Origin: Squalus acanthias
Taxonomy: Eukaryota
NCBI GenBank assembly: GCA_030390025.1
Contig: CM059432.1
Span: 2,790,001 to 2,854,000, forward strand
DNA length: 64,000 bases
Direction: 5' to 3'
The position numbers and the translations under genes are program-made. Shown here one piece after another: positions 12,238 through 55,308 of this stretch. The stretch's first letter is position 1. Each line of letters opens with the position of its first letter. The notes beneath the pieces are model-generated. The model did not search any database. It was not told the DNA's origin and worked only from the letters and a program-made list of their open reading frames with translations.

Positions 12238-13530
12238 TGTAATGTAGGAAACGCGGCAACCAATTTGCGCACAGCAAGCTCCCACAAACAGCAATGTGAT
12301 AATGACCAGATAAACAGTTTTAGTGATGTTGGCTGAGGGATAAATATTGGCCCCAGGACACCGGGGAGAACTCCCCTGCTCTTCTTCAAAATAGTGGCCG
12401 TGGGATCTTTTACGTCCACCTGAGAGAACAGACGGGGCCTCAGTTTAACGTCTCATCCGAAAGACGGCACCTCCGACAGTGCGGCACTCCCTCAGTACTG
12501 CCCCTCCGACAGTGTGGCGCTCCCTCAGTACTGACCCTTCAACAGTGCGGCGCTCCCTCAGTACTGACCCTCCGACAGTGCAGCGCTCCATCAGTACTGC
12601 CCCTCCGACAGTGCAGCGCTCCCTCAGTACTGCCCCTCCGACAGTGCTGCGCTCCCTCAGTACTGCCCCTCCGACAGTGCGGCGCTCCCTCAGTATGACC
12701 CTCCGACAGTGCGGAGCTCCCTCAGTACTGCCCCTCCGACAGTGCGGCGCTCCCTCAGTACTGCCCCTCCGACAGTGCGGCACTCCCTCAGTACTGCCCC
12801 TCCGACAGTGCGGCGCTCCCTCAGTACTGCCCCTCCGACAGTGCGGCACTCCCTCAGTACTGCCCCTCCGACAGTGCGGCACACCCTCAGTACTGCCCCT
12901 CCGACAGTGCAGCGCTCTCAGTACTGCCCTTCCGACAGTGCGGTGCTCCCTCAGTACTGACCCTCCGACAGTGCGGCGCTCCCTCAGTACTGCCCCTCCG
13001 ACAGTGCTGCGCTCCCTCAGTACTGCCCCTCCGACAGTGCAGCGCTCCCTCAGTACTGCCCTTCCGACAGTGCGGCGCTCCCTCAGTACTGCCCTTCCGA
13101 CAGTGCGGCGCTCCCTCAGTACTGACCCTCCGACAGTGCGGCGCTCCCTCAGTACTGCCCCTCCGACAGTGCGGCGCTCCCTCAGTACTGCCCCTCTGAT
13201 AGTGCAGCGGAGCTCAGTACTGCCCCTCCGACAGTGCTGCGCTCCCTCAGTACTGCCCCTCTGATAGTGCGGCGCTCCCTCAGTACTGCCCCTCCGACAG
13301 TGCTGCGCTCCCTCAGTACTGCCCCTCCGACAGTGCAGCGCTCCCTCAGTACTGCCCCTCCGACAGTGCGCGCTCCCTCAGTACTGACCCTCCGACAGTG
13401 CTGCGCTCCCTCAGTACTGCCCCTCTGACAGAGCGGCGCTCCCTCAGTACTGCGCTGGGAGTGTCAGCCTAGATTTTTGTGCTCAAGTCTCTGGAGTGGG
13501 ACTTGAACCCACGACCTTCTGACTCAGAGC
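12238..13530 (-). mobile_element. DeuSINE carrying an internal 33-bp array
   Basis: Head at about 13455-13530, Deu domain and body at 12238-12470. Confidence 0.88.
12470..13452 (-). repeat. 33-bp minisatellite, about 30 units, derived from the SINE
   Basis: Unit ccgacagtgcggcgctccctcagtactgcccct repeated head to tail. Confidence 0.95.
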
Positions 13531-13644
13531 CTCATCAGAGAAACAGCGTCGCGATGAATCATGGTCTGGCTGTGAGTGGGAGAGTAGCAAAGAGAAGCTA
13601 AAAAGTTTTGTAGGAGATTTGGCAGAGACTGCAAAATAGATTAA

Positions 13645-14120
13645 CAAGGATTATACCAGAACTGAGAGGTTATAACCATCAGGAAAGACTGAACAGGCTG
13701 GGGCTCTTTTCTCTAGAAAAGAGAAGGCTGAGGGGTGACCTGATAGAGGTCTTTAAAATTATGAAGGGGTTCGATAGGGTAGACGTAGAGAAGATGTTTC
13801 CACTTGTGGGGAGACCAGAACTAGGGGACATAAATATAAGGTAGTCACTAATAAATCCAATAGGGAATTCAGGAGAAACTTCTTTACCCAGAGATTGGTG
13901 AGAATGTGGAACTCGCTACCACAGGGAGTGGTTGAGGCGAATAGCAGAGATGCATTTAAGGGGAAGCTGGATAAACACATAAGGGAGAAAGGAATAGAAG
14001 GATATGCTGATAGGGTGAGATGAAGTAGGGTGGGAGGAGGCTCATGTGGAGCAGAAACACCGGCACGGAGCAGATGGGCCGAATGGTCTGTTTCTGTGCT
14101 GTAAATACTATATAATTCTA
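13645..14120 (+). mobile_element. CR1 LINE 3' fragment
   Basis: gaggggtgacctgatagaggtc...gggccgaatggtc tail. Confidence 0.85.
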
Positions 14121-14247
14121 TGCAGTGATCCAAACATGCAATAGGATAATCATTTTTGCCATCCCATTTCTCTTGCCCTCTCTAAAGAATCTGCGTGAGT
14201 GTTGAGGCGAACGAGCACTTTGTTGATGTTGTTTGGAGGTTGTTGTG

Positions 14248-51850: not shown

Positions 51851-52560
51851 TGATGCGGTTCTCTGCGCCTTTCCAAGGGCACGTATATTAACGTCAGTGG
51901 TGTGATGACCAACACACTGAATCCAAGCCAGTAAAGTGTAGGTAAAAGAAGAAGGGGAGAGAAAAAGAGAATTAAAAGTTTACAATTGGTACAAGCCTAA
52001 TTCTGCAAAACCCTGCTACCACACTTGATCATAATGGTCAGTAACTTCCAGTTCCCCACAACTGTTACGCTCAGTTACTCTTATAAAAAAAAAAGTGGGG
52101 GTAATTTTGACTTTTGTGCAATAGTGTAGCCCGTTTTACATAGAATGATGCAGCACAGACGGAGTCCATTCGGCCCATCGTGCCTGTGCCGGCTCTTTGA
52201 ACGAGCTCTCCAATTAGTCCCACTCGCCCCCCCGCTCTTTCCCCAGAGCCCTGCAAATTTTTCCTTTTCAAGTATTTATCCAATTCCCAATGAAAGTTAC
52301 TGTTGAATCTGCTCCCACCGCCCTTTTCAGGCAGCGCGTTCCAGATCATCTCTCCCGATTTTCATTTCCAGTGAAACCATTTCACTTTCCCCCCCCCCCA
52401 CCAGTGTTACACAATCGCACCAAGTCAAACCTTGCCTCCAGTCAGTGTAGTTCCAGTGCCGTTCCAGTGCCGTTGCTCATTGGAAATGGCTGGGGGAGAA
52501 TTTCAATACCTTCGCCCGACCCTAAATCGCGCACAGGTTTGGTGGAAAATGCCAACTTAC

Positions 52561-52705
52561 TTTGAAATCGTCAGGAATAAGGAGTTTCGAAGTTCGAAGA
52601 AAGTTTAGAATGTAACGGAACATCTGGCCGTCTCTGTCGATGAAGTAATGTTGCTTGAGGCTGTCCAGGACAATGGGCTCAGTGCCATCGAAGAGGCGAC
52701 CAATT
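52561..52705 (-). CDS. KCTD1: KCTD1 coding exon B (BTB/T1 domain core)
   Basis: (R)[48 protein letters not shown]. Acceptor ttgcag|A completes the split Arg codon; donor AAA|gtaagt; 145 bp. Confidence 0.97.
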
Positions 52706-53563
52706 CTGCAACAGGTTAACAGAAAACTCAGTGCTGGACCCCTGCACGATACCCAAAGAAACATTTTTAAAGTGATGCCAAGTTATTGGAGGCAGCACCA
52801 ACGGGGGGGGCAAAATATTTCACCAAAACAAATAGGAAACGGCACAAGGCTGCACAAGCGATGCCGTGAGTTAGTGTCAGGCTACGTCACTTGTCATTCA
52901 ATTGTTTGTAAAGCCTTTAAGCTCTTCCATTGTGCACTGTACTAATAGAATGATACAGCACAGGAGGAGGCCACTCGGCCCATCGTCCCTGTGCCGGCTC
53001 TTTGAAAGAGCTCTCCAATTAGTCCCACTCCCCCCCCGGCTCTTTCCCCACAGCCCTGCAAATCTTTTCCTTTTCAAGTATTTATCCAATTCTGTTTCAG
53101 GCAGTGCATTCCAGATCATAACAAATCTCTGCATAAAAATAAAAATCTCCTCTCGGCTGGACGTGGGATCCACAAAAGCTGCAAATGGTTTCCTAACATA
53201 GCAATCGATTGAGAAATTTTTCATGCATTCAAGTCATCTCTGGCTGTTAAGTGAGCAGCAAGTCGCCACTTAAAATTCCTGAGTCCCGCGGGCAGATGCT
53301 GCAGGTGTGTCGGAAATGACGCGGGCACCCACCAGCTATGTAAATGATCCCGACCCCGGGACTTGGGAAGGAGTCGGGATCCTGGTAGACCAGCCGCTGA
53401 AAGTCTGCACTTCTGAAGGGAGAGCAGGGGCCCTGGAATTTCAAGCCCCCTCTGTATAAGCTGTGGCTCAGTGGGCAGCACCCTCGCCTCCGAGTCAGAA
53501 GGTTGTGGGTTTAAATCCAACTCCAGAGACTCGAGCTCAAAATCTAGGCTGACACTCCCAGTG

Positions 53564-55308
53564 CAGTGCTGAGGGAGTGCTGCACTGTCGGAGGGGCAGT
53601 ACTGAGGAAGTGCCGCACTGTCGGAGGGGCAGTACTGAGGGAGCGCCGCACTGTCGGAGGGGCAGTACTGATGGAGCGCCGCACTGTCGGAGGGGCAGTA
53701 CTGATGGAGCGCTGCACTGTCGGAGGGGCAGTACTGATGGAGCGCCGCACTGTCGGAGGGGCAGTACTGATGGAGCGCCGCACTGTCGGAGGGGCAGTAC
53801 TGAGTGAGCGCCGCACTGTCGGAGGGGCAGTACTGAGGGAGCGCCACACTGTCGGAGGGGGCAGTACTGAGGGAGTGCTCCACTGTCGGAGGGACAGTAC
53901 TGAAGGAGTGCTCCACTGTCGGAGGGGCAGTACTGAGGGAGCGCCGCACTGTCGGAGGGGCAGTACTGAGGGAGTGCTCCACTGTCGGAGGGACAGTACT
54001 GAAGGAGTGCTCCACTGTCGGAGGGGCAGTACTGAGGGAGCGCCGCACTGTCGGAGGGGCAGTACTGATGGAGCGCCGCACTGTCGGAGGGGCAGTACTG
54101 AGTGAGCGCCGCACTGTCGGAGGGGCAGTACTGAGGGAGCGCCACACTGTCGGAGGGGGCAGTACTGAGGGAGTGCTCCACTGTCGGAGGGACAGTACTG
54201 AAGGAGTGCTCCACTGTCGGAGGGGCAGTACTGAGGGAGCGCCGCACTGTCGGAGGGGCAGTACTGAGGGAATGCTCCACTGTCGGAGGGACAGTACTGA
54301 AGGAGTGCTCCACTGTCGGAGGGGCAGTACTGAGGGAGCGCCGCACTGTCGGAGGGGCAGTACTGATGGAGCGCCGCACTGTCGGAGGGGCAGTACTGAT
54401 GGAGCGCCGCACTGTCGGAGGGGCAGTACTGAGTGAGCGCCGCACTGTCGGAGGGGCAGTACTGAGGAAGAGCCACACTGTCGGAGGGGCAGTACTGAAG
54501 GAGCGCCGCACTGTCGGAGGGGCAGTACTGAGGGAGCGCCACACTGTCGGAGGGGCAGTACTGAGGCTGCGCTGCACTGTCGGAGGGGCAGTATTGAGGG
54601 AGCACTGCACTGTCGGAGGGGCAGTACTGAGGCAGCGCTGCACTGTCGGAGGGGCAGTACTGAGGGAGCGCTGCACTGTCGGAGGGGCAGTACTGAGGGA
54701 GCGCAGCACTGTCGGAGGGGCAGTACTGATGGAGCGCCGCACTGTCGGAGGGGCAGTACTGATGGAGCGCCGCACTGTCGGAGGGGCAGTACTGATGGAG
54801 CGCCGCACTGTCGGAGGGGCAGTACTGAGTGAGCGCCGCACTGTCGGAGGGGCAGTACTGAGGGAGCGCCACACTGTCGGAGGGGGCAGTACTGAGGGAG
54901 TGCTCCACTGTCGGAGGGACAGTACTGAAGGAGTGCTCCACTGTCGGAGGGGCAGTACTGAGGGAGCGCCGCACTGTCGGAGGGGCAGTACTGAGGGAGT
55001 GCTCCACTGTCGGAGGGACAGTACTGAAGGAGCGCTGCACTGTCGGAGGGGCAGTACTGAGGGAGCGCCGCACTGTCGGAGGGGCAATGCTGAGGGAGCG
55101 CTGCACTGTCGGAGGGGCAGTACTGAGGCAGCGCTGCACTGTTGGAGGGGCAGTACTGAGGGCACTGTCGGAGGGGCAGTACTGAGGGAGCGCCGCACTG
55201 TCGGAGGGGCGGTCCTGAGGGAGCGCAGCACTGTCGGAGGGGCAGTACTGAGGGAGCGCAGCACTGTCGGAGGGGCAGTACTGAGGGAGTGCTGCACTGT
55301 CGGAGGGG
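53564..55308 (+). repeat. 33-bp minisatellite, about 53 units, with higher-order blocks
   Basis: Same unit as 12470-13452 and 15598-16125. Confidence 0.95.

Follow-up and report, generated by a model that had tools for sequence, protein, structure and literature searches.

Three 33-nt arrays inside copies of one SINE family

The window analyzed here is a stretch of 64,000 nucleotides (nt) from the shark Squalus acanthias (assembly GCA_030390025.1, contig CM059432.1, positions 2,790,001 to 2,854,000; all positions below are counted from its first letter), and it carries three tandem arrays of a 33-nt unit, called A, B, and C, inside three copies of one short interspersed element (SINE) family. 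Tandem Repeats Finder (TRF) placed these period-33 arrays at 12470-13453, 15598-16123, and 53563-55309, with copy numbers of 30.0, 15.9, and 53.1 and matches of 92%, 93%, and 91%, respectively, and parsing of the letters gave 30, 16, and 53 unit starts, the unit being 33 nt long in 88 of the 96 delimited cases. An earlier inspection of the letters alone (hereafter, the sequence-only reading) had described arrays of about 30, 16, and 53 units behind the tRNA-like head of a SINE, and both statements were borne out: each of the three arrays sits between the head and the body of the same SINE family, with both SINE termini kept. The arrays contain 43 unit types with a nested block structure. They occur in three of the nine SINE copies of the window that have an intact unit region, and no 33-nt unit was found outside SINE copies in the window. 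The four single-unit copies named before are present, and two further ones, both on the minus strand, were found at about 6020-6420 and at 63167-63560.

A junction letter common to the arrays

The three arrays are tied together by one letter. We found G at unit position 32 in all 96 internal junctions of arrays A, B, and C (96/96), versus T in five of the six single-unit copies and in the last unit of arrays A and B. Simple slippage would copy T into position 32 of each internal unit, so that G contradicts recurrent slippage, and the terminal T of A and B shows that the G at these two loci did not come from either flank. With transversions in the SINE bodies running at 1.2% per site and letter, three independent fixations of G are implausible; the common G is observed directly, and it suggests a single origin of the three arrays. 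G also stands at the end of array C and in the copy at 6020-6420. The former may be a product of contraction or homogenization or mark a member of a G-bearing lineage, and the latter may be a collapsed or contracted array, a homogenization product, or again a member of such a lineage.

A second array-specific letter, A at position 5, was considered and rejected, because this A is an allele of the family: arrays A and B have it in their first units, and in contigs of the two organisms sampled it follows immediately after the head (loose-end consensus). For the same reason, the palindrome cagtactg, which had been noted at the array junctions, is a real 8-nt palindrome but not a product of the junction. 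The idea that G at position 32 was favored by weakening the hairpin described below was also rejected, since the effect is just 0.2-0.3 kcal/mol.

The host SINE family

The unit corresponds to positions 110-142 of the reference copy (22396-22866), and 14 SINE body pieces from the window could be aligned. The family has RNA polymerase III (Pol III) boxes, a 3' end shared with a long interspersed element (LINE), and a dispersed, non-coding, high-copy distribution, as a tRNA-derived SINE would. Among the five heads examined, both A and B boxes were found in the copies at 22396 and 31026, host C has one change in the B box, and hosts A and B have only the B box; neither ARAGORN nor Rfam called these SINE heads. 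ARAGORN did report a tRNA-Thr-like sequence at 27766-27836 (minus strand), which Rfam matches weakly (31.5 bits) and which may belong to a different repeat as its head. The last 55-65 nt of the SINE match seven other places at 65-79%, one of which lies directly behind the end of the open reading frame of a LINE (24137-24195) that we take to be an L2. Two SINE copies (6542-7011 and 31026) are broken by other elements of about 280-310 nt, one of them inside the unit. The length of 471 nt, the tRNA head, and the L2-type tail fit the description of SacSINE1, and the names DeuSINE and SacSINE1 are presumed here from anatomy.

SacSINE1 is described as having a tRNA head, a Deu domain, and an L2-type tail, with copies of up to 463 bp in whale shark and homology to zebrafish over its positions 124-258 (PMC5499810); the Deu domain is defined in PMC4824008 and PMC3747384. 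Since the unit lies at positions 110-142, it may not precede the Deu-homologous region but overlap its 5' edge, provided that the two elements are colinear.

Table 1. SINE copies and 33-nt arrays in the window
Feature	Position	Strand	Remarks
SINE copy, unit deleted	2161-2410		
Single-unit copy, 5'-truncated	6020-6420	-	position 32 = G; newly found
SINE copy, unit split	6542-7011	+	insertion of ~280 nt in unit
Host SINE A, body	12234-12469	-	3'-truncated; adjoins inverted head fragment 12176-12237
Array A	12470-13453	-	30 units (TRF and unit parsing); terminal position 32 = T
Host SINE A, head	13454-13529	-	5'-truncated; B box, no A box
Host SINE B, head	15510-15597	+	5'-truncated; B box, no A box
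Array B	15598-16123	+	16 units; local two-unit alternation; terminal position 32 = T
Host SINE B, body and L2-like tail	16124-16452	+	
Reference single-unit copy	22396-22866	+	471 nt; unit 22505-22537; hairpin 22501-22529
Single-unit copy	31026-31800	+	position 32 = T; other element inserted at ~31255-31561
Host SINE C, head	53459-53563	+	near full-length; A box intact, B box with one change
Array C	53564-55309	+	53 units; exact 8-unit block duplication; terminal position 32 = G
Host SINE C, body and tail	55310-55726	+	short deletion beside array; insertion at ~55473-55578
Single-unit copy	58880-59335	-	position 32 = T
Single-unit copy	61330-61790	-	position 32 = T
Single-unit copy, most of head missing	63167-63560	-	position 32 = T; newly found

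Age and relationships of the hosts

The host copies are old, their bodies being as diverged as those of single-unit copies: divergence from the consensus is 5.7% (A), 5.1% (B), and 10.6% (C), and that of 11 other bodies is 5.1-12.9%. Pairwise, the hosts differ by 11.0% (A-B), 15.8% (A-C), and 13.5% (B-C), with a range of 8.1-17.9% over all 45 pairs. A tree of 10 copies, from which four SINE fragments were omitted, is a star in which none of the seven inner branches is supported (0/7), and a single clade of array-bearing copies was neither found nor rejected (p-AU 0.328). Two linked changes in the SINE tail (alignment columns 440 and 442) are common to the copies 31026, 61790, and 63528, which suggests a SINE subfamily to which hosts B and C do not belong. 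No convincing target-site duplication was found in seven elements, a result that is uninformative for an L2-type tail.

Unit variation and local growth

Mismatch to the common consensus of the units amounts to 1.7% in a backbone of 23 nt and 12.7% in a variable segment of 10 nt, in agreement with the contrast between a near-invariant backbone and a segment of about 10 nt that had been seen by inspection; the rates of the SINE bodies predict 6.3% and 9.8%, respectively. Mismatches are clustered (permutation p = 0.027), and two of the three CpGs of the unit lie in the variable segment, where an intact CpG was retained in 59/88 and 46/88 units, compared with 84/88 in the backbone, so that CpG placement explains part of the contrast.

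Units differ by 7.2-8.6% between arrays and by 6.5-8.9% within arrays, and the neighbors A and B differ by 7.2%, versus 7.1% within A and 6.5% within B. The distance of the units to the common consensus is 4.0-5.8%, where 7.4% was expected. Pairs of arrays have six non-CpG variants in common versus 2.5 expected (p = 0.013, 27 events), under a model of even mutation rates that hot spots would weaken. Rare variants that are shared by one pair and missing from the third array number three for A-C, two for B-C, and one for A-B, and no single tree fits them. Growth was local, at the DNA level, in array C and, on weaker evidence, in array B: an exact repeat of eight units lies inside C (0/2000 shuffles) and one of three units inside B (p = 0.039), and no repeated block above chance was found inside A (p = 0.39). 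The arrays share no unit order, the longest common runs being 2, 2, and 1 units (p = 0.14, 0.45, and 1.0). Since no run of four T, a Pol III stop, occurs inside the arrays, a Pol III transcript could read through them.

Hairpin, microhomology, and G-run

The hairpin that the sequence-only reading had placed across the unit of the unexpanded SINE proved to be well founded. It has a 12-bp stem of -9.6 kcal/mol in three of the six single-unit copies and in the first unit of array C, is the strongest 29-mer of the reference copy, and differs clearly from shuffles (z = -3.57); the other three single-unit copies fold at -3.3 to -5.4 kcal/mol. Internal array units reach means of only -3.1 to -3.6 kcal/mol, and three 100-nt pieces of the arrays fold no better than chance (z = -0.17, 0.66, and 0.95). 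Because the internal units lack the hairpin, it did not drive the expansion; it can have aided the first duplication. The reference copy also contains a direct repeat of 6 of 7 nt at exactly 33-nt spacing (22502 and 22535), whose left copy lies in the hairpin arm. This is the configuration of the Haber-Louis model, in which minisatellites are born at short direct repeats (5-10 nt at unit spacing; PMC6947457), and the G at position 32 is not templated by the repeat. Microhomologies of equal or better quality are present in 39 overlapping windows, or about 19 sites, of the SINE, none of them amplified here. With G at position 32, each unit has a run of four G, and the number of runs of three or more G per unit is doubled.

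Evidence from other samples

Contigs of two sequencing runs, X5 (organism A) and X6 (organism B), were aligned to 22380-22680 of the single-unit copy, with 109,147 and 180,152 matching contigs, respectively; X5 could be the source sample of the assembly, and X6 is another organism. Of 368 joints with letters between the joined parts, 12 were listed, and at least five joints, four of them from X5 and one from X6, go back exactly 33 positions at the unit. The X6 joint carries the same G junction as the arrays, in a different organism. The X5 joints listed do not include this main G junction; two of them resemble variants of it. One X5 joint, leading from 22541 back to 22510, looks as a fresh slip would, with T at position 32, and the site can thus be duplicated independently at a low level. 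As period-33 junctions recur in a second sample and a second species, the arrays are not an assembly artefact, and some error in their exact unit counts is still possible.

Relative to neighboring peaks, contig depth at the unit was about 1.1- to 1.5-fold in X5 and 1.5- to 3.5-fold in X6; such depth is biased to the reference, gives no copy number, and was not used for frequency, and there was no sign that arrays dominate genome-wide. The density of arrays in the window may exceed that of the genome. In a wider search, parts of a 2-kb stretch were present in 20 of 24 runs; because LINE and SINE pieces lie in that stretch as well, these shares are uninformative on the arrays, and small shares in three metatranscriptomes count as no evidence. 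The raw-read runs X22 and X23 yielded 45 and 80 matched reads, all partial, and the SINE is not present in them in quantity. About 11 partial reads of X22 (organism H) match 22501-22610, from the hairpin start into the body; they could come from carry-over or from another animal in which a SINE domain is conserved, and are too few to tell. Scans with a SINE pattern found none in viral contigs, metagenomes, or GTDB; 55 metagenome loci obtained with a shorter pattern were dismissed as chance matches, none having similarity to head or body.

Genomic context

Self-repeats make up 63% of the window. On its minus strand, a KCTD1/KCTD15-type BTB gene was recognized by exons at 34776-34988, 41210-41557, and 52525-52782 (Pfam PF20871 twice and PF02214; 3 of 122 frames scanned). 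The start of array C lies some 0.8 kb upstream of the BTB exon; the array is antisense to it and probably intronic. Arrays A and B lie 2.1 kb apart and face away from each other (12176-13529 and 15510-16452), forming inverted repeats of up to 302 nt and 91-96% identity, a possible substrate for exchange or instability. Other tandem repeats occupy 42336-42490, 36277-36360, 50258-50372, 11693-11854, and 18508-18722, the types being 29 x 5.3, 41 x 2, 47 x 2.4, a G-rich 15/38-mer, and a CT-rich run; the 47-mer resembles, by eye, part of the element inserted at 31255-31561.

The reading frames of the arrays are pure repeats without a credible homologue: a protein search with them gave 0 of 8000 candidates, Atlas scores were at most 0.79, and no function is indicated for the arrays. 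An 89-residue Logan product, P0001, has a diverged 11-residue repeat like the array period (56% identity, E 2e-15); it is possibly an older array in another species, and we regard it as a lead only.

Origin of the arrays

We assign a probability of about 0.5 to the reading that a founder SINE with few units was dispersed by retrotransposition and that each locus then grew at the DNA level. The 33-nt stretch would have been duplicated once, by slippage at the microhomology beside the hairpin, and the junction, whose G is common to all three arrays, would have gained this letter a single time. A multi-unit and already varied master may then have been spread through L2-driven retrotransposition, during the old burst that also dispersed the single-unit copies, after which the loci would have grown and shrunk by duplication of unit blocks, a process seen in array C and less strongly in array B. 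Purifying turnover, by which well-matching units are favored, could have kept the backbone pure. In favor of this reading are the G junction, which recurs in the second species, unit distances that are equal between and within arrays, host bodies as old as single-unit ones, block repeats confined to single arrays, and the absence of a Pol III stop; the VNTRs of SVA, too, change by DNA-level remodeling once inserted (PMC4432496). The excess of shared variants fits a varied founder, and the arrays are most likely neutral passengers. That the G-run raises array instability is speculative.

Several observations weigh against a dispersed founder. The backbone is cleaner than an old insertion predicts (1.7% versus 6.3%), and no backbone position was fixed differently between the arrays (rough p 0.014). 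No derived or diagnostic site in head, body, or tail is common to hosts A, B, and C, and the array label needs three changes on the tree, a weak objection given that no branch is supported. No copies with two to four units were found among the nine intact copies, and array C begins with a hairpin-forming unit like that of single-unit copies. With the G at position 32, the G4Hunter-like score goes up from 0.42 to no more than 0.76, the usual cut-off being about 1.2, so that the G-run idea is weak. Rare variants are shared despite fast local turnover, a pattern that exchange between loci fits at least as well.

Such exchange is the core of the main alternative, which we regard as possible but tentative, namely ectopic gene conversion, in which the array was born once and copied into resident single-unit SINEs during break repair, with head and body as homology arms and with continued exchange keeping units alike across loci. 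It would explain why the units look younger than the old, unrelated flanks (4.0-5.8% versus 7.4% expected in the units, 1.7% versus 6.3% in the backbone, and flanks 11-16% apart), why each pair of arrays shares rare variants missing from the third, and why array C starts with a single-unit-type unit and the last unit of A and B has the T of single-unit copies. The inverted arrangement of A and B, 91-96% identical and 2.1 kb apart, is also consistent with it, as is the homogeneity between loci of squamate SINE-derived satellites (sSats; PMC10702118). However, no conversion tract is visible in the flanks (by eye, with low power), the arrays have no multi-unit order in common, and the neighbors A and B are not clearly more alike. 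An equally tentative form of the same idea is a homing-like selfish repeat, that is, a minisatellite that converts resident SINE copies into arrays, with the G-run-forming junction letter as the driving allele. A varied founder with turnover favoring matching units and continued exchange between loci could each account for the unit pattern.

Improbable is a recurrent hotspot, the second of two mechanisms that the sequence-only reading had offered, in which hairpin and microhomology duplicate the unit independently in each SINE copy and the arrays are separate births. The strength of the hairpin, the microhomology at exactly 33-nt spacing, the fresh-slip joint in the X5 contigs, and the lack of a host clade would all suit it. 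It predicts T at position 32, however, and the same T-to-G transversion would be needed three times (96/96 junctions against a 1.2% rate); the other microhomologies of at least equal quality, at about 19 SINE sites, stayed unamplified here, and internal units lose the hairpin and fold like shuffles (-3.1 to -3.6 kcal/mol; z -0.2 to +1.0).

The other mechanism proposed earlier, a young or active composite like SVA in which long ordered arrays retrotranspose within a distinct SINE subfamily, is slightly less probable still. Its notion of a common array ancestor survives, in keeping with the shared junction and variant pool, and the absence of a Pol III stop inside the arrays and the near-complete head of host C also speak for such a composite; there is no sign of its young clade or of ordered arrays carried along, the hosts being 11-16% apart with no common diagnostic site, hosts A and B lacking an A box, and no unit order being shared, unlike the conserved ends of the variable number tandem repeat (VNTR) of SVA and LAVA (PMC4432496). 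Finally, an assembly artefact is hardly credible: 43 unit types with nested blocks and period-33 joints in the X5 and X6 contigs oppose it.

Comparison with known systems and significance

The literature searched, from which most subscription papers, Repbase, Dfam, and SINEBase were absent, gave no account of this repeat in sharks. The earlier expectation of an uncharacterized system therefore stands for sharks within that literature, but the kind of system is known in squamates, mouse, and human, and we regard the arrays as a shark instance of a known process, the formation of tandem repeats from SINEs, with an unusually clean anatomy. The closest likeness is to the squamate sSat1-3, where many loci carry head-to-tail repeats of a segment from inside a SINE (Vassetzky et al. 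2023, PMC10702118). Both at one locus and from locus to locus, the sSat units resemble each other more closely than the SINE copies do, locus-specific subvariants alternate, and one unit type of the snake sSat3 is common to related species. In the same way, the shark arrays consist of part of a SINE, with four or more middle monomers, at several loci (3 arrays of 16-53 units), their units are homogeneous within (6.5-8.9%) and between (7.2-8.6%) loci, and blocks occur in B and C. The two differ in unit length (about 67-290 nt in squamates versus 33 nt) and in their flanks, since squamate arrays mostly keep one SINE end and are uncommonly flanked by both, as all three shark arrays are (3/3); squamate sSats are, moreover, subtelomeric. 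In the parts of PMC10702118 available to us, neither sharks nor a shared junction letter are treated.

Mammalian minisatellites offer further parallels. The mouse (GGCAGA)n VNTR family derived from B1 (Bois 1998) and minisatellites derived from Alu (Jurka and Gentles 2006) are reviewed in PMC6947457, and in one survey 23% of human minisatellites were derived from transposable elements (TEs), the start of the repeat being explained for just 6% of the TE-derived ones (PMC3389668). Like the shark arrays, such repeats are G-rich, SINE-born, often located at short direct repeats, and locally expanded, and they form multi-locus families, the LTR12 repeats being thought to have spread by transposition after they formed (PMC6947457, PMC3389668). 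The shark arrays differ in SINE class and taxon and in being tied to a putative single origin by one derived junction letter. With SacSINE1 and other DeuSINEs, the host family has in common the tRNA head, a length of about 460-470 nt, the L2-type LINE tail, a very high copy number, and old copies (Luchetti et al. 2017, PMC5499810); the words 'tandem' and 'minisatellite' do not occur in the text of that paper, and passages of PMC10468316 and PMC10620051 mention SINEs and tandem repeats in bulk only. SVA and LAVA are non-autonomous retroelements whose central part also holds GC-rich units of 30-50 nt, remodeled at the DNA level (Lupan et al. 2015, PMC4432496), and SVA is a young composite mobilized by L1 with conserved, ordered unit arrays. 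In the shark, by contrast, the repeated segment is native to the SINE, a single unit is found in most copies, and the hosts are old; ordered arrays shared among copies were not found here, and old copies could have lost such order.

How minisatellites are born and how multi-locus families of them spread is still an open question. The system described here offers, side by side, the ancestor before expansion, the flanks on either side, and a junction letter of diagnostic value, in a very abundant SINE and in at least two species, and seeding by retrotransposition, spread by conversion, and independent birth can thus be separated by a simple census. On the practical side, long stop-free frames of such arrays can mislead gene prediction, and the arrays are candidate VNTR markers. 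SINE-derived satellites would extend from squamates to sharks, and if the conversion reading is true, the arrays would represent a selfish repeat riding on a retroposon, which is testable at thousands of orthologous shark loci.

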